Shown here in pieces: positions 1,065-28,308 of a DNA stretch of 64,000 bases. The stretch is from contig JANXEA010000002.1 in NCBI GenBank assembly GCA_025059045.1, positions 10,798 through 74,797 of the forward strand, read 5' to 3'. This stretch comes from Candidatus Bathyarchaeota archaeon (GTDB lineage Archaea; Thermoproteota; Bathyarchaeia; Bathyarchaeales; DTEX01). Position numbers and translations under genes: made by a program. The notes under the pieces are model-generated. The model was not told where the DNA came from. It saw nothing but the letters and a program-made list of their open reading frames with translations, and did no database searches. Numbering within the stretch: position 1 is the first letter of the stretch; the number at the start of each line of letters is the position of its first letter.

Positions 1065-1092
1065 TGAAGGGTGAATAGAGATAACATTCCTA

Positions 1093-2292: not shown

Positions 2293-2409
2293 GCAGGCAC
2301 CCATCAACCCCCTATATTTCCCCCAGATTAAATCGTAGCTATGCGAGAAGGATGCGAAAGTTTTTTTAATTAATTACGAAATCCATTAAGGAAATGGAAA
2401 AAGTTTCAG

Positions 2410-4701: not shown

Positions 4702-4727
4702 TAAGCCCTTAGACAACTACCCCCATA

Positions 4728-4734
4728 TTTTTTT
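4728..4734 (+). terminator. Oligo-T tract (archaeal-type termination signal) after module A gene 1
   Basis: TTTTTTT lies 27 nt after the stop codon at 4701. Confidence 0.35.
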
Positions 4735-4789
4735 AAACTGCAAAAACCTTAAAAAAAATTTATAATCATAATCCAAAAAGAGTCAAAGG

Positions 4790-6733: not shown

Positions 6734-6739
6734 AATTGG

Positions 6740-9700: not shown

Positions 9701-11356
9701 GTGTCAATAGCGCTCACCATAAGTGCGCTAGTAGCCATGACATGGTTTATTCAAGACGTGCCAGTGATTCCGCAAAGGTTCGTTCCGCCTGAAACCGGCT
9801 ATCAAACGATCCCATACAATGGTATACTTATCCATTACAATGAATGGGGGGGAGAAAGAGAAGGTCACTGGATAGGTGAGCTAGTGGAAAATTATGTGGA
9901 GATCAAGTACTCAAGCTTAGCAATGATAGCGAAGAGGGCGTGGTATTGGCCATGGTACTATGATGACGAAGCCGGAATAGACATCACACATGAAAATAAC
10001 TCAATCAAAGTATATTGCCTCTACGGGTTATCTCCAGAGGATCATCATTTCACAAGTTTCCTACCAAACTTTAACGGAAGATGGTTCCTATCCACAGATA
10101 AATATGCGTGCATACTAATGAGTTCCCACGCCCAATCACTTAAGGCAACAATAAATTCTATAATAGAAATTCAGGGAATGCCCTACAAGGTTATAGGAAT
10201 AATAAGAGATGAAGAGATCTCCTCTGCAGGAGAACTTGACGGGTACAGTGTTCTGCCAGTAGATATTCGAGCATCAAAAACTGTGGACGCGTGGGTAACA
10301 TATTATGAGCCATCTGAGGTTATTTTCATCCCGTACTGGACCGTCATTAACATTTGGGGAGCGCGTACTGGATGTATAAGCCTAAAAATCTCGAACGCAA
10401 GTCTCGCGTGGACCGTCGTGCAAGAGCTCTATGAGAGATTCGGAAGCCTATCCTTCTGGGTTTGTATGGATGGAAAAGTCTACACGCCGACACGCATTTC
10501 GCAAACGCAAGTATTCGGGCTTGAATACATGTTTCCCGCCATCGGAATAAGCATGCTTTCAATATTGAATATGATGCTCGCATCAGTCATGGAACGGAAA
10601 AAAGAAATTTCCGTATATTCAGTGCTTGGTGCCTCGCCATTAAACACCGCGCTTATGTTCCTAACCGAGCATGCAGTCCATGCGGTGATAGGCGGCGTTT
10701 GTGGTTTCATCGGAGGAAACGTGCTCTTATTGCTAATTGCGAGACAGCTAGGAATAAACTACACGTACTCAATAATCCAATTCAATGTCTCTGTGCTAGG
10801 AGCGATGCTGATGGTGATACTTGTGAGCGTATACCCGGCGACGATCATTGCAAAACTCGTCACACCGAGTTTAGAGCGAGCTTGGAAAATGCCAACAAAA
10901 CCAGTCGGCGATAACTGGGATATCCCGATGCCATTCTTCACCTCAGGGGAGGAGGTTGGAGGGGTCCTGGAATTCATGAGAGAATTTTTCTCTGGACATT
11001 ATGATTCGAACGCGCCGGTTTTCTGGGTTGAAAGCATAAAATACGTTGAAGGAGAGGCGGATGGGGTCCCATATATGGGGTATAGCATGCAAGTACACCT
11101 CTTCCCATATGAGACAGGTATCATTCAAGAAGCGAATGTAATCGCAAAGACCGAGGATGCAAGATGGAGGATCTTCCTCCTGACCAAGAGGTTAACGGGC
11201 ATGCGTGATAGGTGGATTCAGCAGAATAGAGGGTTCGCCGACGCTGTTAGAAAACAGTTGTTACTTTGGAGATCACTTAAGCCGGAAGAGAAAATGGAAT
11301 ATATCAAAAAATCAGGGGGTGTGACGTTTAACAAAGGCCATTCTGTATCAGATTAA
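6740..11356 (+). CDS. Giant chimeric envelope protein, module A gene 3: N-terminal anchor, PA/M28-peptidase-like ectodomain, 3 TM, MacB/FtsX-type permease module, conserved C-terminal cytoplasmic domain
   Basis: 1538 aa.
- PA-like: GSIVILDYESGNRWLNAMKLGAKAVIF.
- M28-like: WNIIGFIRGENPNVIFGISSYYDSYSFAPDLAPGAQDACGIAALLALAKHF.
- FtsX N-terminal TM: IENMRKRKGRTALVLVSIALTISALVAM (~nt 9657).
- FtsX core: LNMMLASVMERKKEISVYSVLGASPLNTALMFLTEHAVHAVIGGVCGFIGG (~nt 10560-10730).
- C-terminal domain from VTPSLERAWKMPTKPVGDNW (nt 10859 to the end). Confidence 0.85.
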   Translation: MNISGGIMSSKRQVCKWIKILLMASIMLISFFNLTQIYRADQILTVTSTPSEMDYLKLASMVDMELVKHHLYMLSKGIYEISGVHSRATGTLGNELAARYIYEEFNRLMENVSIQSFRVPVPKSYGANITFPDGSVIKLYPVLPNLVCPSTTPPEGISGTLQYAREGYLKDFDGMRIEGSIVILDYESGNRWLNAMKLGAKAVIFLPPKDPLNSFSPYGHHHTHPKYLENFPVYFPRFYVKEEDLKSLFINLGKNVTIKSTVRWENAESWNIIGFIRGENPNVIFGISSYYDSYSFAPDLAPGAQDACGIAALLALAKHFNEHRPKATIIFIAFGGHYQTVAGALQWAESREYAEISQKIWMILNLDLSTGSDALHVTNVAHLWTHAQAGHTEAYIGIGRHLENMRKAISEAYVRAGLEPPTVWTTYIQMRTGGPGDPPTNYHEPHPNRAFLTELDAFDPWGSRAPDYCNPAFFNIITAKDIRPYIFTPFDTYDKLNFENLEKQLRYIYALILTLYSNEDVQWLIENPLRSCAPSGRVQRNGAFVGQTAFWDPKTTWYKPVPNLLVVARMYYSVNKASGWDGWGGTGPTYYRFFTYSDENGTFRFPYTVRVSTKAWVGTDDEVYFEAYAIDPETGQIVVGPDLGRRSMIPYPFANTVWEGKYGDCFLGYLTVQNVTSTIIVSDNYAIGEFVSRNLYDRFPHPSITVNTFLSHVQPEHYAVLYDPAVGLAAILLSTNEPIEVMIGRGRVPYGLIVNASRENMLGTGITFGYGQTILKYPYLIYCENLRWVIEERFRLVEQYKPVDPYIYGRFIRGVQSLEKVYIALNNLSYSEAYAYMIDAWSDLYWAYANQRGEIENIVSIAPYVAFFLVPFAYLTERLILKSSGSKRIASTILILVLIFCIIYTVNPTFKLSGNPVLMVIAFSTVILSIPILFIILSKVVAFLNEIRIKVFGRHEIQVGRVELAIAAIQLGIENMRKRKGRTALVLVSIALTISALVAMTWFIQDVPVIPQRFVPPETGYQTIPYNGILIHYNEWGGEREGHWIGELVENYVEIKYSSLAMIAKRAWYWPWYYDDEAGIDITHENNSIKVYCLYGLSPEDHHFTSFLPNFNGRWFLSTDKYACILMSSHAQSLKATINSIIEIQGMPYKVIGIIRDEEISSAGELDGYSVLPVDIRASKTVDAWVTYYEPSEVIFIPYWTVINIWGARTGCISLKISNASLAWTVVQELYERFGSLSFWVCMDGKVYTPTRISQTQVFGLEYMFPAIGISMLSILNMMLASVMERKKEISVYSVLGASPLNTALMFLTEHAVHAVIGGVCGFIGGNVLLLLIARQLGINYTYSIIQFNVSVLGAMLMVILVSVYPATIIAKLVTPSLERAWKMPTKPVGDNWDIPMPFFTSGEEVGGVLEFMREFFSGHYDSNAPVFWVESIKYVEGEADGVPYMGYSMQVHLFPYETGIIQEANVIAKTEDARWRIFLLTKRLTGMRDRWIQQNRGFADAVRKQLLLWRSLKPEEKMEYIKKSGGVTFNKGHSVSD

Positions 11357-11377: not shown

Positions 11378-13693
11378 TTATGTCTTCCCGAACCAGATCC
11401 TCCAGCTTTTTCTCTCCTCTCCTTTCTGAAACATAATTGTAGCCTTCAAGATCGGTCCCATAATATTAGTGCTCTCTACTCCGCTAAAGCGAACTGGACT
11501 GAACCCTTCGGGTACATAAATGAAGATATTGTGGCTTGTGTCCTCCGGACTAACTGAAATCCCGTCTAGGACCAGCCTGCCCCCCTCCCACCTTAAGTCT
11601 TCAAGTTCTATCCCTCCCTGCGTAATATGCCTATCCGTCGAGATTACTGTAGGAGACTCGCTGAAATCATGTATGGAAAGAATCTTGCAGTCATTAGGCT
11701 GAATCTCGAAAGCAATCTCGCCATGTTGCACTCCAATGAAGTTTCTGTTCCAAAAGTCGAAGACGAGAACTTTTCTGTCGGCTAAACCTATCTTTCCTAG
11801 GTCAAGACGAATGGTCTTTTTCTGAGTGCAGCTCCAGTTAAATAATCCAACGACATGCCATTCGCCAAATGGCTTCTTTACGATCAGATCATAGATTTGT
11901 GGTAAATCATTCTCAAAGAGGTCGACGGGTCTCGCTCGCCCCGGATAAACTGGAAGAATTTTCTTGTATAACTCCACTCTTTCATTGGTTGCGAACTTCT
12001 GCAAATATCCGCCTGCAAACATGTTTAGGCACATGATTCCAAGTAGCGAAATCCATGATCTCGTCCTCTCAAAGGAGTATGGCTTTGGGCGTGGATAGTT
12101 TGCGGGACAGAAAGGTGTCTCCGAAACATCGAAGAATTCCGGATGATTCCAGAAGCACCTTCCATGGAGATGATACATTGCCTTAAGACCTGAAAGGACA
12201 CGGTCGGAAAGATGAGGTCTCCAGTCACGTGAGGTTCTAAATGCATCTGCAAATCCTATGACTGGGCCAAATGGAACACCGCATGCCTCTATGAAGACAT
12301 TTTTTCCAACAGCTTCACGCACTTGGCGGTATCGATCCCTAAATATCTCCATGGCGGTTCGTTCCCATGATAGATTATGTGTAAAGTCGTAATGGAAATC
12401 CAGGATCACATAGTCAATGTCCCAGTCCGCAATCTTTCCATAAATCTCCTTAACTTTTTCTTTCTCGTTGTGTTCTCCTGCCTTAACGTAAAGGAATGCG
12501 CGTGTACTTAGGCAGAGTTTATATCCTCTTCGGTGAACTAGATCCGCGAACGCTTTGATTCCGCTTGGAAAGTATTTCTCAACTCTATACCCTCTGCTGT
12601 TCTCAACCCAAATTGGGAATGAATTCATCTCATACGGATTGAATAGGTTTGGTGAACCGTGAGAAGAAAAGTCCTGCCAGAAATATTTGAGGCCATACTT
12701 TCCCAGCCCTGTATGGTCTAGATAATCCATCCACTCGATGAAGAATGATTCTCGGCCCAGGAGCGTATAAGCATTGTTTTCTTTATCGAAGGAGTATGGC
12801 ATGAATACTCCGGCAACTGGCGTCGGATGAATATTTATATAATTATATTTCATCAACATTTCAGCGTATTGGTCCATGACGCTGAAGATGTCGTCGCCCC
12901 ACATGAGCAAAGTAGCCGACATTCTGAAGGATCTTTCAGGTCTTATCCTTAGCGGTCTCCTCTCTAATGCTGGTCCATTATATTCTTCCCATGACCCGGA
13001 TCCCCATAATGGATCCAAGTAGCAGCCGCCGCTTATAATTAGGTTTAATCCCTGAATTGGTTTTCCAGAAGCCTCTTTTATGAGAACAGCGACTTCGACA
13101 TTAGCAGTTTCTAGGACTCCTGCTACCAAACCGTTTCCCCCCTCCTTGCTTTTTGCCATATGTAGCGTCCACCAACATCTTGCCCAATTTTTCCCGACAA
13201 CTCTGAGTCTCACATTTGAGAACTCAGGCGGCTCGCCTCCGGTTTTCCAGTATGGCATCCCAAAAAAGATCCTTCCAACATACTCTCTGAGACTTCCTTC
13301 TTCTTCCTCAGTTAATGCGAGTGCGTAAACTTCTCTCACATATAGGTCGTTATCCTTATCATTGAAGATTTCAGGCTGGAAAACAATGCAGCGCCCAATA
13401 GAATATACAACCCATCTAAGTTTCGGGAGATTGGCGCTTTCAGCAGTAACCTCTAACCCCTGGGCCTCACCTACTCCTGTCTTCAACGTCTTCCATGCTA
13501 CGGATCGCTTATATGAACTGTCTGTAATCTTTATTAGGTTTCCATCTCCATCGATGAACCCCATAAAACCATTCTTGAAGAGTGTCTTGTTTCGAATGGT
13601 GCAGGTCAGTTTTCCAGTTTCAACATTGAATTCAAGTTTCACATCACTTCTAGTGGACATGGAGCTCACCACTATCAATAGTTCATTCGACAA
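11378..13693 (-). CDS. Putative cytoplasmic glycoside hydrolase (clan GH-D / GH36-like alpha-galactosidase fold)
   Basis: 771 aa with no signal peptide. Blocks DWDIDYVILDFHYD and FIEACGVPFGPVIGFADAFRTSRDW resemble the K-x-D nucleophile and R-x-S-x-D acid/base regions of GH36/GH27 enzymes. Matched by eye only. Confidence 0.45.
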   Translation of the reverse strand: MSNELLIVVSSMSTRSDVKLEFNVETGKLTCTIRNKTLFKNGFMGFIDGDGNLIKITDSSYKRSVAWKTLKTGVGEAQGLEVTAESANLPKLRWVVYSIGRCIVFQPEIFNDKDNDLYVREVYALALTEEEEGSLREYVGRIFFGMPYWKTGGEPPEFSNVRLRVVGKNWARCWWTLHMAKSKEGGNGLVAGVLETANVEVAVLIKEASGKPIQGLNLIISGGCYLDPLWGSGSWEEYNGPALERRPLRIRPERSFRMSATLLMWGDDIFSVMDQYAEMLMKYNYINIHPTPVAGVFMPYSFDKENNAYTLLGRESFFIEWMDYLDHTGLGKYGLKYFWQDFSSHGSPNLFNPYEMNSFPIWVENSRGYRVEKYFPSGIKAFADLVHRRGYKLCLSTRAFLYVKAGEHNEKEKVKEIYGKIADWDIDYVILDFHYDFTHNLSWERTAMEIFRDRYRQVREAVGKNVFIEACGVPFGPVIGFADAFRTSRDWRPHLSDRVLSGLKAMYHLHGRCFWNHPEFFDVSETPFCPANYPRPKPYSFERTRSWISLLGIMCLNMFAGGYLQKFATNERVELYKKILPVYPGRARPVDLFENDLPQIYDLIVKKPFGEWHVVGLFNWSCTQKKTIRLDLGKIGLADRKVLVFDFWNRNFIGVQHGEIAFEIQPNDCKILSIHDFSESPTVISTDRHITQGGIELEDLRWEGGRLVLDGISVSPEDTSHNIFIYVPEGFSPVRFSGVESTNIMGPILKATIMFQKGEERKSWRIWFGKT

Positions 13694-13798
13694 ATCTGCC
13701 TTAACGCTTCGCAGCCTAAATATAAATTTAATGTTTCAAAAAATATTCTCAATTCAATTCGCAAATTTCCATAATTTTATAGTCAGTCAAAGCGTTTT

Positions 13799-15316
13799 CT
13801 AAGCCAAATCTAATATGAGCCCGCTTATCGAGTGTCTAGGGGCAGTGTATGTGAGTGTGTCTCCACTGATTTCCTCATATGAGCTTCTCGGTTTAACCTT
13901 GTATGGAAACTCGAACCCATTATAATCTCTGACATCTGCTGAGCCTAAAATGTATATTTTCGCTGCTTTTATTGTTTTACCTTCAATTACTTTAATTCTT
14001 ACCTCAAAATCTTCGTCCAAACTCTGATTTACAAGTGTTACCACTATCTTTTTTTTCTCTCTATCTAAAGAGGCTGATGCGTCCACCGCTCTTAACGGCT
14101 TAAGGGCTCCGGATGGTGATTTTTCCACCATCTTTTGCGTAGGGTGGCAAATAATGGGTGAATCTACATTGGCATTTAAGGCATAGTTGCCCATGTGCTC
14201 CTTATATATATCAAATAGATGGTATGTTGGGGTCAAAGTGATTTTATGCCCCTCGGTATGAATTAGGCTTTGGAGAACATTCACCGTCTGAGCTAGGTTC
14301 GCCATATCAATAATACTTGAATACCTGTTAAAAAGATTGAGAACTAATCCCGCAAGAATAGCGTCCCTAAGGGTGTTTTGTTGAAAAAGTCCAACCTTAT
14401 GTGTCGCCTGAGGATACCAGGTTCCCCATTCATCTACCACGATACCAATTCTCTTTTCTCCGACAAGATTGATTGCCCTCGATGTCTGTTGAATAAAGAA
14501 TTCCATATTCTGAACATCGAATAGTAGATTGTAGTACTCCTCATCTGTGAATTCTACATCCCCTCCGAAAGGGTTTCGGCGGCCACTAAAATAATAGTGG
14601 ATGGCGACGCCGTCTACAAGGTTCAATCGATCTCTCAAGCATTCCAAAAAAGTAGTCATCCACTGAATGTTTAGGCGGCCGCATGCAATAAGATTGATGG
14701 ATGGATCCGCCACCTTTAGAAAATTGGCGAATCTCTTATACTCCCAAGCATAGTATGTGGGGTCGAATGATCCGCCACATGCCCAACTCTCATTTCCTAC
14801 TGCCCAATATTTCACATTATAAGGTTCTGGATGACCATTTCTAGCCCTTAACTCAGTATAGAATGTTCGACCTGTAAAGTTGCAGTATTCAACCCAGTTA
14901 AACGCTTCCTGTGGGCTTCCAGTCCCGACATTTAGGCAAATATAGGGTTCAGCGCCCACAGACCTGCAGAACATTATGAACTCATCTGTTCCAAACTCAT
15001 TAGACTCCTCGCCTCCCCACCATAAATTGCGTCTTCTAGGTCTATTCTCACGTGGACCAATCCCATCCTCCCAATGATACATGTCTGCGAAGCATCCGCC
15101 AGGCCACCTGAAGACAGGTGCACGTATAGCCCTTAAGGCGTCAATAACATCTTTCCTTATACCATTAATGTTCGGTATGCTGGAATCCTCGCCAACCCAT
15201 ATGCCCGGGTATATGCATCTCCCGAGATGCTCGATGAAGTGACCATAAAGGTTCGGGTTTATGAGGCCCACGTAATCATCCAATCTAATAGAGACATCAA
15301 CAATTTTTTGATTCAT
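13799..15316 (-). CDS. abfA: GH51 alpha-L-arabinofuranosidase
   Basis: 505 aa. N-terminal NPNLYGHFIEHLGRCIYPGIWVG, acid/base motif WAVGNESWACGG and nucleophile motif IVVDEWGTWY are the canonical GH51 signatures. No signal peptide. Confidence 0.85.
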   Translation of the reverse strand: MNQKIVDVSIRLDDYVGLINPNLYGHFIEHLGRCIYPGIWVGEDSSIPNINGIRKDVIDALRAIRAPVFRWPGGCFADMYHWEDGIGPRENRPRRRNLWWGGEESNEFGTDEFIMFCRSVGAEPYICLNVGTGSPQEAFNWVEYCNFTGRTFYTELRARNGHPEPYNVKYWAVGNESWACGGSFDPTYYAWEYKRFANFLKVADPSINLIACGRLNIQWMTTFLECLRDRLNLVDGVAIHYYFSGRRNPFGGDVEFTDEEYYNLLFDVQNMEFFIQQTSRAINLVGEKRIGIVVDEWGTWYPQATHKVGLFQQNTLRDAILAGLVLNLFNRYSSIIDMANLAQTVNVLQSLIHTEGHKITLTPTYHLFDIYKEHMGNYALNANVDSPIICHPTQKMVEKSPSGALKPLRAVDASASLDREKKKIVVTLVNQSLDEDFEVRIKVIEGKTIKAAKIYILGSADVRDYNGFEFPYKVKPRSSYEEISGDTLTYTAPRHSISGLILDLA

Positions 15317-15436
15317 ATTACCATCTCCAACTAGCCTATACAGTTTTGCTGAAGCAGAGCAGGATAAAAAAATATTTTTAAGAAGAGGACATTAGCGCAC
15401 ATAGGGATTCATCAGATTTGCTGATATTACTTTTTC

Positions 15437-16534
15437 TCAATCCCCTACGTCCGGCTCCCTTTCTGTGGCCTGCACTTCCATAAGCCACTCTTCGTTAAAC
15501 CAGCAGTGTTTGATGCTTCTTCGCAAGTATGTATACACTATATGGATAATGCCATCGTCTGTTTGTAGAAGTTGAGGATAAGAGAATTGTCCAAAAGCAT
15601 CTTCCAAAACTCTCTCATATGGCCATGTTTGCCCCTCATCAATGGAGAAAGCAACGTTAAGGGGAGTGCGCCCTATATGAGTGTCATTGAATGCTAGAAC
15701 AAAATGACCATTTTTAAGCCTTATCAGGGAAATGCCGCTGTTAGGATTTGGGAATTGGGTCTCAACTGCTTCACTCCATGTCCTTCCACGGTCATTCGAT
15801 ATGGATTTCCAGATAAATCCCCCAATATTGAGGAGTTCCTTCTTCTCAGCGATCTTTCCTGTTGAGTCTTGGACTGTTCTCCGAACTGTTGCCTTCAAAA
15901 AGCCGTGCAATGGATGGCTTCGAGTCCTCATATACATTAATAGAGAACCATCAGAGAGTTGAACAATGTTTCCCTGAACGCATCCAGTAACACTTGTTAC
16001 TGGGCCGTAGGTGTCCCAGACTTCTCCCATGTCCTCAGATATCATAACATAACAACAATTAGGCTTCGCTTTACTATCATATATTGGGAGGACTATGTCG
16101 CCGTTATCGAGGACTATAGGGTTATTTCTCACCCATAAGCCTCTCCTAGGACGGAAGATTTTATCTTCACTCCAAGTATTCCCGCCGTCAAAACTTTTTT
16201 TGTACATTATTATGCTTGAGGGTCCGCCTTGATCGTGGCTGACATACCAAAGCCACACAACACCATTTGGATCTACGAATAGCACTGGGTTTTGATCTGA
16301 TTTTCCAGGGACGTCTGCCAAAACCTCAGGATCACTCCAAGAATCACCGGAAAACCTTGAGCAGTAAATAGCAACATCACTAGCTCCCTCCCTCGATCCG
16401 GCGAACCACGCTGCAAGCAAATCTCCGCCTGGCAGTTGAGCGATTGTAGGAGCGTGGCAATCAGGGAACCTTCCCTCCTCAAATATGAGCTCTGAACCAA
16501 ATATTTGGGCCATACTCCCACCTAAAGAAGACAA
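15437..16534 (-). CDS. BNR/Asp-box repeat sialidase-like (GH33-like) beta-propeller protein
   Basis: 365 aa with Asp-box repeats SFDGGNTWS, SNDRGRTWS and SIDEGQTWP. No signal peptide. Confidence 0.65.
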   Translation of the reverse strand: MSSLGGSMAQIFGSELIFEEGRFPDCHAPTIAQLPGGDLLAAWFAGSREGASDVAIYCSRFSGDSWSDPEVLADVPGKSDQNPVLFVDPNGVVWLWYVSHDQGGPSSIIMYKKSFDGGNTWSEDKIFRPRRGLWVRNNPIVLDNGDIVLPIYDSKAKPNCCYVMISEDMGEVWDTYGPVTSVTGCVQGNIVQLSDGSLLMYMRTRSHPLHGFLKATVRRTVQDSTGKIAEKKELLNIGGFIWKSISNDRGRTWSEAVETQFPNPNSGISLIRLKNGHFVLAFNDTHIGRTPLNVAFSIDEGQTWPYERVLEDAFGQFSYPQLLQTDDGIIHIVYTYLRRSIKHCWFNEEWLMEVQATEREPDVGD

Positions 16535-16662
16535 AGATTGTTAATGCTATTTATTTTTAATTGCCAATTGCAAAAACAACGTATAGCAATTAAACGTGAT
16601 GAGTAGTAAACAATTTATTATGGATGTTAAGGAGGTAAAGATAGTGTTGGCGGGGATCTTAT

Positions 16663-19600
16663 ATGCATGGGTCCCGGAAGCTCTATGGATGGAAAGAGGC
16701 CGCTACATACATCCTTGCAGTCATACTTTTGGTGAACGCTCAAATTATTTCATCCGCATGTGAGCAGACCCCACGATCGATAGGCCGCATCTACATAAAA
16801 GTTACAGACGCAAACACAGGGGAACCTATCTCAAACGCAACTTTAATAATACTTGACATTACCACAGGGCTTGAGGAGTCAAAGATAAGGTCAACAGGTC
16901 AAAGCGGAGAGTACGTTTATGAGGAAGCGGTCCCTGAAGGGAAATATTGGATATACGCCTATAAGGGGAACTTGACTAGCGGTTATATGGAATATGCGCC
17001 TGCCGGACCATTTTTAATACATTTCTCAATCTTTGACACCGTGAAGAATCTGACGGTCCGGCTTGTTCCATGCGGAACCATCAGGCTTAAAGGTCCAATA
17101 TGGATGGCTGGCATATCTGAGCTACTAGAGAATTTTGCGGTGACGATTATTGACCCAGCCTGTGGAAAGCCTCCTATGTTAAATGGAGACTATATCAGCC
17201 AGTACAATTCTACAACAAGATTTTATCTTGCGGAGAAAGACTTGCTAAATAAGAGTCTCGTCTTCGTTCCTGCAGACGTTAACCTAGATCTGTTGGTGGA
17301 GGCCACATTCTATAGAAGAGAGGTGGGATTTAGATCCTTCTCGTTCAGGATTGAGAATGTCTCAGTCCGCAAGTCAGAGGAAGCCGCCTATGAACTCTCA
17401 TATTACAGTTTACGTGAGAGCATTAAAGATGTGAATAGTGTTGTCCAATCGGTCATGGAGGAGTTATCTTTTCTCCAGAGTATCGGTTTCTACTTTGTGC
17501 AAGAACGGTCAAATCTAGTGGAGCAGATCAGCACGATAAATGATGCGAGGAGAGAATTGGATAGGCGGGACTATTATGAATGTTGGAAGGCCCTTAGCAA
17601 AGCTTACAGTGAAAGTCTAAGTGTTAGAGAAACCCTGCGTTATTATGTTGGGGTGAGTACTCAGAGTGCGGTTTACCTTCCTACATTCCTAGCCGTTTAT
17701 AGCGTAATACTTGCTTTCTTCCTCTTTGAGGATGACCGGAAAAAAGTTGCTGCCAGCCTCATATTTTATATAGTATTTCTCGTGGCCCTATTCCAAATTT
17801 ATCCTGGTACAAGAACCATAATTAACCCAGAGACTGGAAACATTCGTTTATTTTTGTCAGCCTCTATTCTATCCATAGTCTGTGTAATGGTGCTAGTATT
17901 TTTCCTGCAGCGCCGACCGAGGCTTGGAATTGAAGGTTTAACGACGTTCAGGGATGTACTGGCCACGTTCTTCTCAATGGGGAAACGCCAGATAAGAGTA
18001 AGAAGATCTAGAGGGATCCTCACATTATCATCTGTGATCCTTCTGATCCTAGCATTCACCTCACTAACTTCTATGGGATATATTTATGGGCTAACATACG
18101 AGAAGATACCATACACATCGAACGTTGAGGGGATATTGATAAGGTCGACAGGAAATGAAACATTCATTTATGGACAGAATGTTTATAGGCTTTTTATTCC
18201 ATTCGGATCCAGCCTTGTGTACGCTCTTTCTCAAGATCCCGCAGTCGAGCATGTCGCTCCAAAGATAGAATCATATCCCAGCACAGAACCTATTGGAAGG
18301 CTCTTCTCAAATAGATCATCATTATCGATTTACGGTTTGATCGGCATAGTGCCAAGTGATGAGGCGCAATTTACAAGACTGAACAATGCGATCGTGAATG
18401 GCGAATACCTAAAAGACGGAGACCTTGAAGGATTACTCATAAGCAGCGAAGCGGCTTCAGAATTAGGAGTAAACAGTGGTGATAAGGTTATATTCTCGAT
18501 TGGAGGAATTGTCTCAAACTTTACAGTCCGAGGGATTTTCGGCAGCACATCCTACCAGCAGTTAAGGGATATAGATGGGCAGCCGTTTGGACCTAAGAAG
18601 GCTGCATTTTCCAACGGCACCATCTCATACTCATTATGTGAGCCGAAAGAAGTCATAATATTAAACTTTGAAGCGGCGCTGGAACTTCAGGCAAAGATAA
18701 ACGTTCAGAATAAAAGGGCTCCTGAAGAACCAGGCCCCCTCAATCAGCTCTCCAGAATATCAATAAAGCCTAAGCCAGCTGCGGACATAAAAGGTATGGT
18801 CGAGACCATTGTGAAAAGCTTCGGCAAAGACGCTTATGTCTCTAAAGATGGTGCAGTATACCATTATTACATTGGGTTTGCTTATGAGGCAAAGGGAGCT
18901 CTTGAAATCCTTGTTCCACTGGTGATGGCCCTCATAAACGTCGGCGCCGTCATGCTCAACGCAGTTTACGAGAGAAGCAAGGAGATGAAGATTCTGACGA
19001 CAATGGGATCAAATCCCATGCAGCTCGCTTCATTATTCATTGCGGAGGCAATGACGCTTGGAATGGTTGGTGGTGGGCTCGGATACATTTTCGGCCTAGG
19101 ATTCTACCGTATAATGCTCTTGACTGGAACTGGAATCGAAGTTAGAGAAAAAGTGGAATGGTATTGGAGCGCCATATGTCTATGTCTGGCAGTCTTGGCT
19201 TGTGTTCTCTCTACACTAAGACCAGCTCTACTCGCGATAAAGATGTACACACCATCAATGGTTCGGAAGGCGAAGATCTCTGAAGAGGAGAAGGAGACGA
19301 GAATGGAGGAGATTTTCAAAGTATATCAGGAGAGAAGCATGTCCATGCCAGTAAAAGTGAAGGAAGCGGAGATACTCATATTCACGACTTTCATAAAGTC
19401 AAGAATGGAGGAGATGAGATCAGGAATCTACGAGAGGATTGAAGACGTGGTGGATGAACCTGAAGTACAAACGCCCACTGGTAGGGTCGTACGCAAAGTA
19501 AAGTTCAGATACAATTGCCCACAGGAAAACCTAAAGATAAATAATGAATTAGTATGCAGCAAAGACAAAGGAGAAGACAAGTATAGGGTCCATCTAGTAC

Positions 19601-19713
19601 TTAATACTGACCGAATAGAGATATCGGAAAAGTGGATCTACAGAATCACTGATCTAATCCGCGACATTCTAATGGAATGGGTTCAAAACAAGGACAAAAT
19701 ATTAGGCAGATAA
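16663..19713 (+). CDS. CarboxypepD_reg-like ectodomain fused to a MacB/FtsX-type permease and the same class of C-terminal cytoplasmic domain
   Basis: 1016 aa.
- N-terminal anchor, then IYIKVTDANTGEPISNATLIILDITTG (carboxypeptidase-regulatory-like beta-sandwich).
- FtsX N-terminal TM: KRQIRVRRSRGILTLSSVILLILAFTSL.
- FtsX core: LNAVYERSKEMKILTTMGSNPMQLASLFIAEAMTLGMVGGGLGYIFG.
- Tail YTPSMVRKAK...MPVKVKEAE resembles VTPSLER.WK...IPLKVEHFE of the giant proteins. Confidence 0.8.
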   Translation: MHGSRKLYGWKEAATYILAVILLVNAQIISSACEQTPRSIGRIYIKVTDANTGEPISNATLIILDITTGLEESKIRSTGQSGEYVYEEAVPEGKYWIYAYKGNLTSGYMEYAPAGPFLIHFSIFDTVKNLTVRLVPCGTIRLKGPIWMAGISELLENFAVTIIDPACGKPPMLNGDYISQYNSTTRFYLAEKDLLNKSLVFVPADVNLDLLVEATFYRREVGFRSFSFRIENVSVRKSEEAAYELSYYSLRESIKDVNSVVQSVMEELSFLQSIGFYFVQERSNLVEQISTINDARRELDRRDYYECWKALSKAYSESLSVRETLRYYVGVSTQSAVYLPTFLAVYSVILAFFLFEDDRKKVAASLIFYIVFLVALFQIYPGTRTIINPETGNIRLFLSASILSIVCVMVLVFFLQRRPRLGIEGLTTFRDVLATFFSMGKRQIRVRRSRGILTLSSVILLILAFTSLTSMGYIYGLTYEKIPYTSNVEGILIRSTGNETFIYGQNVYRLFIPFGSSLVYALSQDPAVEHVAPKIESYPSTEPIGRLFSNRSSLSIYGLIGIVPSDEAQFTRLNNAIVNGEYLKDGDLEGLLISSEAASELGVNSGDKVIFSIGGIVSNFTVRGIFGSTSYQQLRDIDGQPFGPKKAAFSNGTISYSLCEPKEVIILNFEAALELQAKINVQNKRAPEEPGPLNQLSRISIKPKPAADIKGMVETIVKSFGKDAYVSKDGAVYHYYIGFAYEAKGALEILVPLVMALINVGAVMLNAVYERSKEMKILTTMGSNPMQLASLFIAEAMTLGMVGGGLGYIFGLGFYRIMLLTGTGIEVREKVEWYWSAICLCLAVLACVLSTLRPALLAIKMYTPSMVRKAKISEEEKETRMEEIFKVYQERSMSMPVKVKEAEILIFTTFIKSRMEEMRSGIYERIEDVVDEPEVQTPTGRVVRKVKFRYNCPQENLKINNELVCSKDKGEDKYRVHLVLNTDRIEISEKWIYRITDLIRDILMEWVQNKDKILGR

Positions 19714-19859
19714 GATCATCCGGAACCTGCCTATATAAAATTTTTGTTTTTCTAAACACGTCTAGCTCCGCCTATCCTACTTTGAACAGGAAAGACGAAA
19801 AACTTAATAACACACAACCTATAGTTCAAGATGAATTAAATTAAGCGGAGAGTAAGATA

Positions 19860-22800
19860 ATGAGATACCATGCCTTAATTCTAGCATTATTCATCTTATT
19901 AGCATCATCAATTTCGCATGTAGGAGCTACAGCTGTAAAAGAGAGGGTAATGGGTCAAAGTACGGAGAGAGCTACTCTAGATTGGAGTTACCGGGGATAT
20001 TCCGTTGCAAGCTTACTGGCTGAGCGGGAAGGTTTCGCCAAGGATGTCACTGGCGGGTTAAACGGTAGAGTATACCGTGTGACTTCGCTCTCCCCAGCGA
20101 GTGGTCCTGGAACGTTAAGAGAGGCAGTTTCATTGCCTGAGCCATTATGGATTGTGTTCGATGTGAATGGAACCATAGACCTTGGAAACGAGGAACCTTT
20201 GTACATTAGATCAAATAAGACGATTGATGGAAGAGGCGCAGAAATCGTGATTGCAAGGAAGGGGGTTAGAATAGATTTTCAACAGAACATCATAATAACT
20301 AACATACGCTTCGAGAATGTCGGCGGCGATATTATAGAGATCAGAGGAGAATCCACACTGATCTGGATCCATCACTGCGACTTCATGAATGGGAACGATG
20401 GAGCAATAGACATAGTGAAGACCGCTGGACCAAGTGTAGATGTAACGGTCTCATGGTGTAGATTCTGGTGTCACAAGAAAACTATGCTCATAGGTGGAGA
20501 TGCATGGGAACAAGAGGTGAAGAATGTTCGCTTAACACTTCACCATAACTACTTCTTCATCACCGATCAGCGCAACCCAAGGATCAGATGGGGAAAAGTT
20601 GACGCGTATAACAATTATCTTTATGGCTGGCGCGATTATGGAATGGGCGCAAGCATGTACGGAGAGCTACTTGTTGAGGCAAATGTCTTCGAGGCATTAG
20701 AAAACAAGGAAGCGGTGGTGGCTCCTGTGGGCTCAGGAGGCGAGCTGGACTATCCTGGATATGTGAGGCTGAAGGATAATCTATTCCTTAATGGGGCGAT
20801 AGCTAAAGTTGGCCCGGGATACTCCGGACTTGTCTTTAGACGCGAGGACTATTACACCGCCAAGATAGAACCTGCAACAGAAGGATTAAAACTTAAGATA
20901 ATGGCGCAGGCGGGAACAAATATACCATTCCAGCCGAGAATAATGGTTAACCTCAAATCTGTGGATGATCCATACCCATCAAAACATTACCTAAACAGGA
21001 CAGATATCTATGTCGGAAACACCACGGCAAGGTACTACTGCATCATCGAGCCCTATAGAACCCCCTCAGATAAGATTGTCAGATGTGATTGGGACTTCGG
21101 CGACGGAACAAAACTAACGGTAACAAATGTAGTCCTCTTCCATGATCCATCCGTCACCTACACTTACAAGCAACCAGGAACATACACAATAAAAGTTACA
21201 CTAACGACTGCGGATGGAAGAACAATAACACTAAGTGAAGAGGATGTAATATTGCCTGCAGAGACGGGTGGTGCTGGTGGTACAGGTGGAACTGGTGGGG
21301 CAGGTGGAACTGGTGGTACGGGAGGAACTGGTGGTACAGGTGGAACAGGCGGGGTAGGTGGAATAACCGCGCCCAGCGATGCTCCATGGCCAATGGGACA
21401 GCGTGATCTTTCCCGCTCAGGTTATACGAGCGATCTAGGCCCGGCGACTAATGAGTTATTATGGGTGTTCGATACGGGCACGTATGGCGAGCCTATTAGA
21501 AGCGGCGTCTCAATTGCATATGGAATAGTGTACTTCGGCTCCGACAACGATTGCGTATACGCCGTAAATGCGACTACTGGACAGATGATATGGAGGTTTA
21601 ACGTTACAGAGTTCACAGGCACCGGAAAAGCGGACGTGAGAAGCACACCAGCAATCTCCGATGGTAGAGTATACTTTGGCAGCAGAAACGGCGTCTTCTT
21701 CTGCCTAGACGCCTACACAGGCGCCGTCAAATGGTACTATATTCCAGTCGATGAGGACGGAAAGAATGTCTCTATCTTCCGCAGCTCTCCAGCGGTCGTA
21801 GAGGGCAGAGTTCTCTTCGGAACTAGGGAAAAATCCGGAAAGCTTTACTGCCTAAACGCGACGAATGGTCAAGTGATCTGGAGGTTCGCCGCGGAGAATG
21901 AGATAGACTCAAGCCCAACAGTAGTAAAGGATAGGGTGTACTTTGGCTCCGACGACGACTACGTCTACTGTGTAAACCTGTATACTGGCGAATTAATTTG
22001 GAAGACGAATGTAGGCAGCAATGTGATCAGGGCGCCAGTATACTACAATGGGCTATTATTCGCCGCGTCTCAGGGATTAGAAAGAATATTCGCCCTTAAC
22101 GCAACCACAGGCGAAAACATTAGAAACTACACGATCATGGGGTATCCGAAAGGCGGCGTCGCGGTTGGAAGCGGCAAGCTGGTTATTACAGGGGTAACAA
22201 GCGGAACCGTCTACTGCTTCGACATTGAGACGGGTCAGCGGCTTTGGAGTTACGGAACGGTTGGACTTGAAGCCTACGCAGCCATACCTGTAATCGCACG
22301 GGACATAGTCTACTTAATCGCTCCAGACGCTGCAATTCATGCGGTAGACCTGAACACCGGCCAAATGATATGGAAATATGTTACAGATCCTGCCCAGTAT
22401 TGGAGATGTGATGAGGCTTATGGTGCTATTGCGTATGGCTGCCTGTTCATCGGCGCCGGGGACGGCAAGCTATACTGCTTTGGAAGACCGCCAAACCTTC
22501 CGATGAAATTGACTGCAAAAGTAATATGGGCGAATGGCTCAGCGGTCATAGGTGCAAAAGCCACGATATCAAACGGGACGAACACGTTTACCCAGAACAT
22601 AAGCGCATCAGGGGAAGCAACATTCAGTATCTTCAGGGGCAACTACACGGTGAAAGTAGAATATGGATCCATCCCACTCTATGTGGGCACAATCGATCTT
22701 CAGCGTGACACTACAATAACAGTAACGCAATATCCAGAATTATTACAGTATGCAATCCAACTTCAAAGCCAAATAGCTAGTCTCCAAAATCAGGTCAATA

Positions 22801-22949
22801 ATCTTCAGAGCCAGGTCAATCAATTACAATCTGACAAGTCAAGTCTCCAATCACAAGCATCCAATAGCCTCTACATGGGTCTAGGAGGCGGTGCGGGAGC
22901 CGGCCTAATAATCGGCATAATCATCGCCTACATCTTGAAGAAAAGATGA
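19860..22949 (+). CDS. Secreted multidomain protein: PL1 pectate lyase, PKD-like domain, Gly/Thr linker, PQQ-like beta-propeller, coiled-coil stalk, C-terminal TM anchor
   Basis: 1029 aa with a signal peptide.
- PL1 motifs: SNKTIDGRG, LIWIHHCDFMNGNDGAIDI, RNPRIRWG.
- PKD-like: CDWDFGDGTKLT...YTYKQPGTYTIKVTLT.
- Repeated A-x-D/N-x-x-TG-x-x-x-W blades (VYAVNATTGQMIWRF, LYCLNATNGQVIWRF, VYCFDIETGQRLWSY and others).
- Coiled coil: QLQSQIASLQNQVNNLQSQVNQLQSDKSSLQSQ.
- Tail: LYMGLGGGAGAGLIIGIIIAYILKKR. Confidence 0.85.
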   Translation: MRYHALILALFILLASSISHVGATAVKERVMGQSTERATLDWSYRGYSVASLLAEREGFAKDVTGGLNGRVYRVTSLSPASGPGTLREAVSLPEPLWIVFDVNGTIDLGNEEPLYIRSNKTIDGRGAEIVIARKGVRIDFQQNIIITNIRFENVGGDIIEIRGESTLIWIHHCDFMNGNDGAIDIVKTAGPSVDVTVSWCRFWCHKKTMLIGGDAWEQEVKNVRLTLHHNYFFITDQRNPRIRWGKVDAYNNYLYGWRDYGMGASMYGELLVEANVFEALENKEAVVAPVGSGGELDYPGYVRLKDNLFLNGAIAKVGPGYSGLVFRREDYYTAKIEPATEGLKLKIMAQAGTNIPFQPRIMVNLKSVDDPYPSKHYLNRTDIYVGNTTARYYCIIEPYRTPSDKIVRCDWDFGDGTKLTVTNVVLFHDPSVTYTYKQPGTYTIKVTLTTADGRTITLSEEDVILPAETGGAGGTGGTGGAGGTGGTGGTGGTGGTGGVGGITAPSDAPWPMGQRDLSRSGYTSDLGPATNELLWVFDTGTYGEPIRSGVSIAYGIVYFGSDNDCVYAVNATTGQMIWRFNVTEFTGTGKADVRSTPAISDGRVYFGSRNGVFFCLDAYTGAVKWYYIPVDEDGKNVSIFRSSPAVVEGRVLFGTREKSGKLYCLNATNGQVIWRFAAENEIDSSPTVVKDRVYFGSDDDYVYCVNLYTGELIWKTNVGSNVIRAPVYYNGLLFAASQGLERIFALNATTGENIRNYTIMGYPKGGVAVGSGKLVITGVTSGTVYCFDIETGQRLWSYGTVGLEAYAAIPVIARDIVYLIAPDAAIHAVDLNTGQMIWKYVTDPAQYWRCDEAYGAIAYGCLFIGAGDGKLYCFGRPPNLPMKLTAKVIWANGSAVIGAKATISNGTNTFTQNISASGEATFSIFRGNYTVKVEYGSIPLYVGTIDLQRDTTITVTQYPELLQYAIQLQSQIASLQNQVNNLQSQVNQLQSDKSSLQSQASNSLYMGLGGGAGAGLIIGIIIAYILKKR
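21267..21362 (+). repeat. In-frame tandem 9-bp (GGT GGN ACN) repeat encoding a (GGT/GGA)n linker
   Basis: 96 bp reading ggtggtgct ggtggtaca ggtggaact and so on. It encodes GGAGGTGGTGGAGGTGGTGGTGGTGGTGGVGG between the PKD-like domain and the propeller. Confidence 0.9.
22404..22480 (+). repeat. 77-bp exact DNA repeat, copy 1 (inside the propeller of ORF 19860)
   Basis: agatgtgatgaggcttatggtgctattgcgtatggctgcctgttcatcggcgccggggacggcaagctatactgctt is base-for-base identical to 24223-24299. It encodes RCDEAYGAIAYGCLFIGAGDGKLYCF. Confidence 0.9.
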
Positions 22950-22960
22950 AGAACCCTTTC

Positions 22961-22966
22961 TTTTTT
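22961..22966 (+). terminator. Oligo-T tract after ORF 19860
   Basis: ccctttcTTTTTTatt begins 8 nt after the stop codon. Confidence 0.35.
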
Positions 22967-23064
22967 ATTAAGCGACTCACAAAAAAGGAATCTGGTTTGA
23001 GAAAAAGCTTAAAAGTTAAACCATATTAATTAATAAGGAACTCTTAGTTAGGAGGAGATGAAAT

Positions 23065-24684
23065 TTGAGAGCGAAGCCGAAAACTGGCTTGAGAAAAACA
23101 TCGACTCTAATGATGGCATTCGCCGTCTTTTCAATCATGCTCTCTGCCACACTTCCGATTGTCAGGGCATCAGCAAGCTCCAGTGGCACATATTACGCTT
23201 GGCCTATGGCAGGATATAATCTGCAACGAACCGGATATACGGATGAGGCGGGGCCGAAAACAAATAATACGTTATGGATATTTGACACGGGAAGCGTCGG
23301 TCAAGGAATAAGATGTGGTGTTGCTGTTGCATATGGGATCGTCCTCTTCGGATCAGATGACGATAACATCTACGCTGTTAACGCCTCGACCGGGACGCTG
23401 ATCTGGAAATTTACAGCCACGGGGTCCACGCCAGATATGAGAAGCACTCCGGCTGTGGCTGATGGAAAAGCATACTTCGGCTCAAGAAATGGGACACTAT
23501 TCTGCGTAGATGTCTTTACAGGCGCGCTGATCTGGAAGTTCGTGGTGCCGCCGACACCTGGGACAACATATATTCCCATCATGCGTAGCTCCCCGGCAGT
23601 GGCTGATGGAATGGTTGTAACGGGAGTGAAAGGTAGGGGATTCTACTGCTTAAATGCGACAACCGGGGCCGTCATATGGAACTTCACTACTGGAGATGAG
23701 GCAGACGTCAGTCCAGCCATAGCTGATGGAAAGGTATACTTTGGGTCAGATGATGATCAAGCTTATTGCCTAGACCTGAAAACCGGAGCTCTACTCTGGA
23801 ATAGGACCTTAAATAGTAATGTGCTGCGCATAGTAACCTACTATCGAGGGCTGGTTTTCGCTTCTGTGCAGGCGGCTCCTGGAGTAGCTGACGGCATAGT
23901 TTATGCCCTTAACGCGACAACGGGTGAGGTTGTAAGAAATTACACGTTAATTAATGGTGGGAACTTGAGAGGCGGCGTCGCAGTTGCAGGCGACAAACTC
24001 GTTGTATCCGGGAGCCATAATGGCATAGTATACTGCTTTGACATCGAAACTGGGCGACTGATTTGGAACTACTCCCTGGGCGTAGTAGGGGCCTGGTATA
24101 ATATACCGGCAATAGCCAAAGACACCGTCTATATCATAGGTAGGGACGCGATTATCCATGCGATAGACCTAGGCACTGGACAGGCTATCTGGAAGTATCA
24201 GACAGACGTGTTCCATGCGACCAGATGTGATGAGGCTTATGGTGCTATTGCGTATGGCTGCCTGTTCATCGGCGCCGGGGACGGCAAGCTATACTGCTTC
24301 GGAGCTCCCCGCAACGATATCTACTTAGAGATGCTTAGATACATATCTCAAATCTCGCAACTACAATCCAACATAAGCAGCCTATTGAGTGAGAGAAGTA
24401 CCCTACAAAGCCAGATTAATACTCTACAGGGTCAAGTGTCTAGCCTCCGGAACAGCGTGAATCAGCTGCAAGGACAAGTTACAAATCTTCAGAACCAAGT
24501 TAGTCAGTTACAGTCAGAGAAGGCAAGCCTCCAGAGTCAGGTCGATAAATTGCAGACTGACAAGATCAATCTCCAGAATCAGGCGACAAATAATCTTTAC
24601 ATGGGTTTAGGCGGTGGAGCAGCGGTTGGCTTGGTAATCGGAGTAGCCATACCCTCATTTTTAAGAAGAAATAGATCCAGTTAA
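23065..24684 (+). CDS. Secreted PQQ-like beta-propeller protein with long coiled-coil stalk and C-terminal TM anchor (paralog of the C-terminal half of ORF 19860)
   Basis: 539 aa with a signal peptide (TTG start). It has the same blade repeats (IYAVNASTGTLIWKF, FYCLNATTGAVIWNF, VYCFDIETGRLIWNY, IHAIDLGTGQAIWKY). It also has a ~90-aa Q/L/S heptad region and the tail LYMGLGGGAAVGLVIGVAIPSFLRRNRSS. Confidence 0.85.
   Translation: MRAKPKTGLRKTSTLMMAFAVFSIMLSATLPIVRASASSSGTYYAWPMAGYNLQRTGYTDEAGPKTNNTLWIFDTGSVGQGIRCGVAVAYGIVLFGSDDDNIYAVNASTGTLIWKFTATGSTPDMRSTPAVADGKAYFGSRNGTLFCVDVFTGALIWKFVVPPTPGTTYIPIMRSSPAVADGMVVTGVKGRGFYCLNATTGAVIWNFTTGDEADVSPAIADGKVYFGSDDDQAYCLDLKTGALLWNRTLNSNVLRIVTYYRGLVFASVQAAPGVADGIVYALNATTGEVVRNYTLINGGNLRGGVAVAGDKLVVSGSHNGIVYCFDIETGRLIWNYSLGVVGAWYNIPAIAKDTVYIIGRDAIIHAIDLGTGQAIWKYQTDVFHATRCDEAYGAIAYGCLFIGAGDGKLYCFGAPRNDIYLEMLRYISQISQLQSNISSLLSERSTLQSQINTLQGQVSSLRNSVNQLQGQVTNLQNQVSQLQSEKASLQSQVDKLQTDKINLQNQATNNLYMGLGGGAAVGLVIGVAIPSFLRRNRSS
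24223..24299 (+). repeat. 77-bp exact DNA repeat, copy 2 (inside ORF 23065)
   Basis: Identical to 22404-22480, whereas the flanking paralogous sequence is clearly diverged. Confidence 0.9.
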
Positions 24685-24701
24685 GCCTTCTTAGATCCCC
24701 A

Positions 24702-24708
24702 ATTTTTT
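24702..24708 (+). terminator. Oligo-T tract after ORF 23065
   Basis: ccccaaTTTTTTTc lies 18 nt after the stop codon. Confidence 0.35.
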
Positions 24709-24736
24709 TCTATATACCATCAATTTATTTTCGGCT

Positions 24737-28163: not shown

Positions 28164-28183
28164 TCAATCGCTTCCACCCATTA

Positions 28184-28190
28184 TTTTTTT
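28184..28190 (+). terminator. Oligo-T tract after module B gene 1
   Basis: ccattaTTTTTTTaat lies 21 nt after the stop. It mirrors the T7 tract after module A gene 1. Confidence 0.35.
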
Positions 28191-28308
28191 AATGCCTCAA
28201 CCGTTTGAGGGTGTCCAATGAAGTTGAATAGCAAAATTCTTAAGATCCTGCAAATGATTATACCGAAGGAAGCCGCCTAGTTCCAACATACGGCTAGAGA
28301 GTGGATGA

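Follow-up and report, generated by a model that had tools for sequence, protein, structure and literature searches.

Gene clusters for polysaccharide use of the Gram-positive and archaeal type combine a secreted depolymerase with cytoplasmic exo-glycosidases and, in their canonical form, a substrate-binding protein (SBP), a permease pair, an ATPase and a regulator. The rhamnogalacturonan-II (RG-II) and pectin polysaccharide utilization loci (PULs) of Bacteroides thetaiotaomicron, which draw on glycoside hydrolase (GH) families GH140, GH127, GH78, GH2 and GH143 and on polysaccharide lyase family PL1 (PMC13501991), use SusC/SusD and trim in the periplasm. In thermal Bathyarchaeia rich in carbohydrate-active enzymes (CAZymes), membrane proteins that combine extracellular pectin-lyase domains with PQQ-like propellers are known at the level of gene content, and plant-polymer degradation has been credited to these archaea from CAZyme counts alone (PMC8407382, PMC11697101). 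In the light of these accounts a CAZyme islet is ordinary for Bathyarchaeia and not in itself new. Here we describe such an islet in a 64-kb stretch of Candidatus Bathyarchaeota DNA (contig JANXEA010000002.1, 165 kb in all; the 64-kb stretch is called the window below), where it lies between two copies, A and B, of a three-gene membrane module and where no ABC-type sugar importer is encoded. The best overall explanation, which we give an even chance of being correct, is that this is a reduced pectin-type islet with the flanking modules as its uptake route.

The closest relatives of the window are Candidatus Bathyarchaeia metagenome-assembled genomes (MAGs) from hot-spring-type samples. Between 2.4 and 34.8 kb it holds 13 contiguous open reading frames (ORFs) with intergenic gaps of at most 150 bp (Table 1): module A on the plus strand, a convergent minus-strand trio of enzyme genes, and a plus-strand series made up of an FtsX-type membrane protein (FtsX_1016), the PL1 protein, a propeller paralogue of the latter, a DsbD-like protein and module B. 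All four CAZymes of the window fall within a run of seven genes, the remaining ~45 genes including none, a clustering that is not due to chance (hypergeometric probability ~1e-4 for a fixed block, <1e-2 allowing all block positions). A Pfam scan of the 13 ORFs, and of ORFs of at least ~160 residues in the rest of the 64 kb, gave no SBP_bac, BPD_transp or sugar-type ABC_tran domain, either within 2.4–34.8 kb or outside it. ABC genes in the window are limited to an ABC-2 permease and ATPase (50211–52102), an ECF S-component lies at 39596–40156, no recognizable regulator was found in the cluster or the 64-kb window, and neither a TonB-dependent receptor nor a SusD-like protein was matched in 2.4–34.8 kb. 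What the locus shares with clusters of the Gram-positive and archaeal type is thus the secreted depolymerase, the cytoplasmic exo-glycosidases and, in relatives, a linked sugar-catabolic operon, while SBP, permease pair, ATPase and regulator are missing. From the RG-II PULs it differs in its archaeal host, in the absence of SusC/SusD and in the predicted cytoplasmic rather than periplasmic trimming.

Table 1. Features of the window discussed in the text (positions in nucleotides of the 64-kb window).
Feature	Position	Strand	Detail
Module A	2410–11356	+	A1 2410–4701, A2 4790–6733, A3 6740–11356
Clan GH-D (GH36-fold) retaining glycosidase	11378–13693	-	771 residues (760 from the NCBI start)
GH51 alpha-L-arabinofuranosidase	13799–15316	-	505 residues; Alpha-L-AF_C and PDB 2vrk match
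BNR_2 six-bladed propeller, sialidase-like	15437–16534	-	365 residues; BNR_2 E 3.7e-61
Divergent intergenic region, 128 bp	16535–16662		between the BNR/GH51/GH36-like operon and the plus-strand genes
FtsX_1016, MacB-like membrane protein	16663–19713	+	1016 residues; Pfam, transmembrane scan
Surface-tethered PL1 lyase	19860–22949	+	1029 residues; Pectate_lyase_4 E 4e-22
Lyase-less PL1 paralogue	23065–24684	+	539 residues; signal peptide, propeller, coiled coil, C-terminal transmembrane helix
DsbD_TM-type thiol-disulfide membrane protein	24737–25957	+	406 residues; N-terminal CxxC region
Module B	26100–34784	+	B1 26100–28163, B2 28309–30210, B3 30192–34784
Sugar-catabolic operon	44375–49121	-	transketolase 48243–49121 and 47301–48242, FGGY kinase 45817–47289, isomerase 44375–45778

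The depolymerase of the islet is built, in order, of a signal peptide, a beta-helix (residues 49–313), a PKD domain (residues 400–457), an eight-bladed BamB/PQQ-like propeller, a coiled-coil stalk and a C-terminal transmembrane (TM) helix. Among the enzyme and propeller proteins of the islet, a signal peptide with an anchor occurs only on this PL1 protein and the propeller proteins. Its catalytic domain scores 79.3 bits against Pectate_lyase_4 (cutoff 24) and finds as best PDB match VexL, the Vi-antigen lyase of Achromobacter (6fi2, E 9e-42), with Jun a 1 and Thermotoga maritima PelA also matched. Like VexL and the PL1 pectate lyases, it retains the catalytic Arg (QRNPRIR) and two acidic ligands, with DGAID intact, but it differs from them in its fusion to PKD domain, propeller, coiled coil and anchor and in having His for the first Ca-ligand Asp of the WIDH motif (WIHH, residue ~165), a replacement also seen in a 42% identical homologue encoded in a related MAG (21158–22306 of locus L020, described below). 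The lyase-less paralogue downstream is 47% identical to residues 510–1028 of the PL1 protein, from which it differs in lacking both the lyase and the PKD domain; it may serve at the cell surface as a scaffold or binding partner.

Neither signal peptide nor TM helix was found in the GH51, GH36-like and BNR_2 proteins, which places the trio in the cytoplasm. The GH51 protein matches Alpha-L-AF_C with 136 bits (E 1.5e-39, cutoff 27) and PDB entry 2vrk across residues 9–499 (E 2.5e-117), and alignment to the latter shows that both the acid/base Glu (GNE, in AVGNESW) and the nucleophile Glu (DEWG, in VVDEWGTW) are retained. For the 771-residue protein Pfam returned nothing other than Melibiase_2 at 18.8 bits, under the cutoff of 23, NCBIfam gave no match, and comparison with PDB sequences gave weak GH27/GH36 matches (1uas, E 2e-7). 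An AlphaFold (AF2) model was compared by Foldseek; built from a 12-sequence alignment (pLDDT 79.7, pTM 0.84), it shows the three-domain architecture of GH36, with an N-terminal beta-supersandwich, a (beta/alpha)8 barrel and a C-terminal beta-sandwich, and it matches GH36 enzymes best (8x1b at E 6e-23, 3mi6, TmGalA; E 6e-23 to 1e-18, TM-scores 0.52–0.59), with GH97 and with GH27 beta-L-arabinopyranosidases scoring lower. Identity to these GH36 enzymes is ~12%, and with the Pfam score below threshold and NCBIfam empty the protein does not belong to GH36 at the level of sequence; judged by the model, the name GH36-like is valid at fold and clan level only. Two Asp residues, D421 (YLMLDFN) and D479 (RxSxD), are invariant in 12 homologues; they resemble the GH27 motifs YLKYDNC and RTTGD and, by comparison of motifs rather than structural superposition, may be the counterparts of the catalytic Asp nucleophile and Asp acid/base. 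The enzyme is predicted to be, most likely, an alpha-galactosidase or a beta-L-arabinopyranosidase-like glycosidase. The BNR_2 protein, finally, aligns over the full profile (207 bits) as a six-bladed BNR/Asp-box propeller and, compared with the Micromonospora viridifaciens sialidase, keeps the Tyr nucleophile and two Arg; the Arg of the RIP motif has become His (CHAP), and the equivalent of E260, the Glu partner of the Tyr, is Gln. With these two catalytic residues replaced, a canonical GH33 sialidase was rejected for this protein.

These results bear on an earlier note on the same DNA, made from its letters and ORF translations, which had placed between the modules three signal-less enzymes (GH36-like, GH51 and BNR sialidase-like) and a secreted PL1 lyase fused to a propeller and stalk. 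The GH51 and PL1 assignments hold, the latter gaining a PKD domain and a C-terminal anchor. Of the GH36-like call, the fold, the clan and the missing signal peptide stand and membership of the family by sequence does not; the BNR_2 protein is indeed a signal-less propeller, with two of the residues expected of a sialidase changed. Two genes of the interval, FtsX_1016 and the 539-residue propeller paralogue, had gone unmentioned. The note had also found no SBP, permease and ATPase set in 2.4–34.8 kb, which is confirmed and now extends across the 64 kb.

Each flanking module consists of a DUF6785/6784 OPT-like protein (A1, B1), an OPT-fold protein (A2, B2) and a giant tandem MacB-like protein (A3, B3). 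The two modules are ancient paralogues, A2 and B2 being 27% and A3 and B3 26–34% identical, whereas the similarity of A1 to B1 is barely detectable. A2 is recognized by the Pfam OPT profile (PF03169; 34.4 bits, cutoff 25.8); its closest retrieved homologue reaches at most 31% identity, and no close ortholog of it was found among the retrieved loci. B1 carries the Pfam domains DUF6785 and DUF6784 and is a remote homologue of B2 (hhalign 90%, E 2e-6, 284 colinear columns). A model of B2, built from 41 homologues with a pLDDT of 90.6, has as its sole significant match in the PDB the barley OPT/YSL transporter HvYS1 (7wst/7wsr; E 8e-12, TM-score 0.64–0.67), on which it superposes. The module proteins depart from the OPT/YSL superfamily (TC 2.A.67) in their low identity to HvYS1 (~14%) and in that they always come as a pair accompanied by the giant MacB-like protein. 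The B2 family is small, with 320 cluster representatives at E<=1e-3 among 1.84 billion, and our literature search found no paper mentioning DUF6785 or DUF6784 and none linking OPT transporters with archaeal glycoside hydrolases.

A3 and B3 are composed of an N-terminal anchor, a PA/M28-like ectodomain of ~800 residues and three TM helices, followed by a TM-MacB_PCD-FtsX unit. With MacB-type ABC transporters they share the FtsX four-helix unit and the extracytoplasmic MacB_PCD domain, both of which are matched in A3 and B3 (FtsX_1016 matches FtsX); unlike MacB, A3 and B3 are covalently fused tandem double units with a large ectodomain and no cognate ATPase gene. The B3 ectodomain aligns with the PA-domain M28 aminopeptidases of Aneurinibacillus (2ek8) and of Bacillus subtilis (YwaD, 6hc6; E 1.6e-11), the similarity spanning both the PA and the M28 domain. 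In all 14 aligned sequences of the A3/B3 family the catalytic and ligand Glu-Glu pair of M28 is replaced (by HW, HY, FW and others, residues ~250–330 of B3), and in four of them (A3, L012, L013 and L019) the first His ligand is gone as well. An active M28 aminopeptidase was rejected on these residues; the ectodomain looks like a pseudo-peptidase, resembling in its loss of Glu-Glu non-catalytic M28 relatives such as the transferrin receptor.

The surroundings of modules elsewhere lean towards glycosidases rather than peptidases. Module loci were clustered at 85% identity into 63 lineages and their flanks were searched with seed GH sequences; L numbers denote retrieved homologous loci or lineages, and co-occurrence counts rest on a metagenome scan (a genome-contig scan gave 3 loci). 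The triad is kept in nearly all of 80 retrieved metagenomic loci, representing more than 60 lineages and including Bathyarchaeia, Thermoprotei, Thermofilaceae and one Latescibacteria bacterium (L019), with orthologs of module B at 52–65% identity in Bathyarchaeia MAGs. Within a Bathyarchaeia-like clade, whose members are 43% or more identical to B2, 11 lineages are informative in that their flanks exceed 1.5 kb, and in eight of these (L002, L011, L024, L025, L027, L028, L032 and L033) GH78 and/or GH140-like genes lie near the module, with GH78 on either side of it in L011 and L032. The distance from GH to module edge is 18 to 569 bp in six lineages, 1.3 kb in L033 and 3.1 kb in L027, and the order of GH and module genes varies among lineages. 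The seed search detected 12 GH genes over 96 kb of flank, or 0.125 per kb, as compared with a genome-wide CAZyme density of at most ~0.03 per kb on the assumption of 49 CAZymes per MAG (PMC8407382), though it tells against reading much into this comparison that the lineages are not phylogenetically independent and the background GH density is a rough literature estimate. Some module-adjacent GH78 proteins have a signal peptide and a C-terminal anchor and others have not, and all module-adjacent GH140-like proteins are free of both; this mixture of secreted and cytoplasmic GHs repeats the outside/inside pattern of the window around the only transporter present in those loci. Modules are associated with GH families that differ from those of the islet; tblastn with the GH51, BNR, PL1 and GH36-like proteins detected no homologues in the first module loci.

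L015 (1–2990, running off the locus end) encodes a 2069-residue paralogue with the architecture of B3 in which a GH2 (mannosidase-like) ectodomain precedes MacB_PCD and FtsX, and it adjoins a DUF6785/6784 gene, an anchored GH97/GH31-like enzyme and GH53. Fusions of this kind, between a glycosidase and a MacB-like membrane scaffold, seem not to have been reported so far.

A larger version of the islet is found in MAG GCA_038857705.1, where locus L020 is a 22-kb CAZyme island that holds a 59% identical ortholog (768 residues) of the GH36-like protein. Its gene order is GH42-like, Fucose_iso_C isomerase, FGGY kinase, split transketolase, GH140-like apiosidase, BNR_2, GH51, the 768-residue ortholog, a 358-residue protein, GH127, racemase, GH29, GH2 and PL1 with PKD. 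The GH36-like and GH51 genes are in synteny between the two genomes, and orthologs of window genes include GH51 (62%), PL1 (42%) and the four catabolic genes (68–74%); the BNR_2 proteins occupy the same position but, at 24% identity, are not orthologous. The islet of the window is a reduced version of such an island. The families of L020 match the set listed for pectin, rhamnogalacturonan-I and RG-II side chains (PMC13501991), and taken together the window, L020 and the module neighbors share with the RG-II PULs PL1, GH51, GH127, GH140-like, GH78, GH29, GH2, GH53 and a keto-acid-glycosidase-like propeller, of which the window alone has four families. In L020 the catabolic genes (1053–5848) directly adjoin the CAZyme island, next to the GH140-like gene, whereas in the window they lie 20 kb off; the operon at 44375–49121 probably serves the island as its sugar-catabolic arm. 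An arabinose pathway was rejected for it, since NCBIfam gives its FGGY kinase 615 bits as GlpK against 81 bits as ribulokinase, with PDB comparison in agreement. Going by sequence, a D-apiose transketolase pathway is possible, the operon being 38%, 43% and 35% identical to aplK, aptA and aptB of Escherichia coli SE15 (PMC13001218), although this comparison does not discriminate, as the kinase resembles GlpK more closely and many archaea have split transketolases.

The explanation we favor would work as follows. The tethered PL1 lyase would attack an alpha-1,4-polyuronide outside the cell, most likely homogalacturonan-type pectin, and fragments would be imported through a proton-driven permease formed by the two OPT-fold proteins of a module, with the giant MacB-like protein offering its catalytically dead PA/M28-like ectodomain for capture or hand-over and the DsbD-like protein keeping the disulfides of that giant protein. 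Inside, GH51, the GH36-fold glycosidase and the atypical BNR_2 propeller would strip neutral or unusual side-chain sugars from the imported fragments, and the isomerase/kinase/transketolase operon would pass the released sugar to central metabolism. The data establish which enzymes are present, their localization signals, the lack of an ABC importer, the OPT fold and the neighborhood of modules and GHs in relatives; the substrates, the coupling of enzymes to module and the parts played by B3 and the DsbD-like protein are inferred. Taken by itself, import of glycans or glycosides by the flanking modules has in our estimate slightly less than an even chance of being right. More tentatively still, the triad may represent an unrecognized class of uptake system for glycans and plant glycosides that replaces SBP-dependent ABC importers in CAZyme-rich Bathyarchaeia and some Thermoproteota, its cargo being rhamnose-, apiose- or arabinose-bearing fragments, glycopeptides or phenolic glycosides. 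The last two come into view as possible substrates through the recurrent URO-D, MTTB and corrinoid-protein neighbors of modules (below).

A good deal weighs against modules that import glycans, and much of it would suit modules that take up peptides or other non-glycan substrates and merely neighbor the islet, its oligosaccharides entering by an ABC or secondary transporter encoded elsewhere; this we consider unlikely, if by no means far-fetched. We know of no OPT-family member that is a sugar carrier, the precedents being peptides, glutathione and metal chelates, and homology to OPT and a YS1-like fold fit such substrates, as do the alignment of the B3 ectodomain with aminopeptidases and the source label 'peptide transporter' on bacterial module homologues. 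In GCA_038857705.1, the closest relative with both, the island (L020) and a module (L009) lie on different contigs. At L021 a 44% identical GH36-like homologue directly follows ROK, SBP_bac_1 and two BPD_transp_1 genes, so that a canonical CUT1 importer of this kind may be encoded elsewhere in the genome of the window. The L004–L010 lineage, 65% identical to B1 and represented by 18 contigs, has no CAZyme within 10 kb of its modules and a context of AFOR, aminotransferase, amidohydrolase and ABC-2 genes, of which the first three fit amino-acid catabolism; thermopsin, TldD/PmbA or M24 peptidases stand near some modules. Seed-detected GH genes are absent in L004–L010, L031, L012, L014 and most of 50 more distant lineages, among which the signal is weaker, with seven positive; an unbiased Pfam count of 143 neighbors adds NamZ and GH4 (three each) and GH57 (two). 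There are difficulties on the enzyme side, too. Judging from the His in place of the Ca-ligand Asp and from VexL as best relative, the polymer cut by the PL1 protein may not be pectin, and as the window encodes no GH105, PL22 or Kdu/Kdg it offers no local pathway for the unsaturated oligogalacturonides that such a lyase would release. What peptide uptake does not account for is the loss of Glu-Glu throughout the ectodomain family, with the first His lost in four members, the GH78/GH140-like adjacency in eight of 11 lineages with rearranged gene orders, the GH2 ectodomain standing in place of the M28-like one in the L015 paralogue, and the absence of peptidase families from the 25 commonest families of module neighbors; nor does the 22-kb island of the relative come with a transporter of its own, no module or other transporter being found within 10 kb of it.

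The modules might also be envelope machines, in which a MacB-like mechanotransducer or exporter with DsbD-like and OPT-like accessories assembles, anchors or activates the surface PL1, the propellers and secreted GH78. MacB-type proteins, as in MacB, LolCDE and FtsEX, work in the outward direction or as force transmitters, not as importers; the DsbD-like partner is conserved, FtsX giants stand beside secreted enzymes (FtsX_1016 directly upstream of PL1, others at L003/L024 and L014), and module-adjacent GH78 proteins often bear both a signal peptide and a C-terminal anchor. Against this, a secondary-transporter fold is seen in two of the three conserved proteins of the module, many adjacent GHs are cytoplasmic and require an import route, and the module is without an ATPase gene: ABC_tran is absent from it in the window (2.4–34.8 kb) and in L004–L019, small FtsX and ABC_tran pairs occurring 2–8 kb away in L018 and L019 only. 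MacB-like giants without an ATPase sit no better with import, but the envelope function as a whole we regard as improbable. Very improbable, in our view, is that the islet is the leftover of a larger island, placed by rearrangement between paralogous modules with no functional tie to them and no coherent substrate. The window does lack the GH140, GH127, GH29 and GH2 of L020, the catabolic operon is displaced, the syntenic BNR_2 is not an ortholog and the products of PL1 have no pathway in the window; yet the four enzymes are intact ORFs with most catalytic residues retained, the 128-bp divergent promoter region is common to the FtsX/PL1 series and the GH operon, and adjacency of module and GH recurs in other lineages. 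Returning to import by the modules, the earlier note had named them the obvious candidates for it, for which the OPT-fold transporters and the GH neighbors in relatives speak and the unlinked arrangement in GCA_038857705.1 and the context of L004–L010 do not; the co-occurrence with CAZymes by which it proposed to check this is mostly borne out, though the linkage is not an obligatory one. Its picture of depolymerization outside and trimming inside agrees with the location of the enzymes and the missing importer, but the cytoplasmic enzymes would act on neutral side chains and the PL1 product has no pathway, so that this is a shared theme rather than a demonstrated pathway.

Two further membrane proteins of the plus-strand series recur with modules. 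FtsX_1016 has an N-terminal anchor, a CarboxypepD_reg domain, about six more TM helices and an FtsX domain; blastp reveals a remote relationship with the C-terminal halves of A3 and B3 (E 2e-18 for B3), and in L002, L003/L024 and L014 FtsX giants like it adjoin a module or a GH gene. The DsbD-like gene, upstream of module B in the window, is a frequent partner of that module in Bathyarchaeia: orthologs lie directly beside the module in L002 (5494–6714) and L004–L010 (8651–9877 in L004), and DsbD-like genes occur within the module locus in L011, L018 and L028 as well. This suggests that disulfide upkeep of large ectodomains belongs to the module system.

Other common neighbor families of the modules are B12-binding, MTTB, URO-D (MtaA-like) and radical SAM proteins, which recur in L013, L017, L027 and many of L034–L102 (3–6 of 143 and 4 of 86 representative module neighbors). 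Their recurrence hints at a link between modules and corrinoid-dependent (O-)demethylation of methoxylated plant compounds. One radical SAM protein near a module, L011 1713–4118, bears an intein (Zn_ribbon_HMPTM, Intein_splicing and Radical_SAM), and intein-less versions of it stand near modules in L017 and L003.

Twelve upstream regions, drawn from islet, modules and catabolic operon alike, yielded on comparison AT-rich near-matches only and no convincing shared operator motif. Downstream of most genes in the series there are oligo-T tracts (4702–4789, 19714–19859, 22950–23064, 24685–24736 and 28164–28308), which may be archaeal terminators. A2 and A3 are spaced by 6 bp and B2 and B3 overlap by 19 bp, so that translational coupling in the window seems confined to the OPT-like gene and the giant gene; between the stop codon of module A and the convergent GH36-like gene there are 21 bp.

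Few uncultured archaea are as abundant in anoxic sediments and hot springs as the Bathyarchaeia, and how the products of polymer breakdown enter their cells has not yet been addressed, a question that the present finding makes directly testable. Should the modules not be importers, what is left is an ordinary CAZyme islet with its importer elsewhere. If they are the entry route, the substrates of the OPT superfamily would extend to glycans and glycosides, a function would be at hand for DUF6785/DUF6784 and for a small family of giant membrane proteins of archaea and at least one bacterial lineage, and the modules would be a genomic marker of archaeal PUL-like loci.

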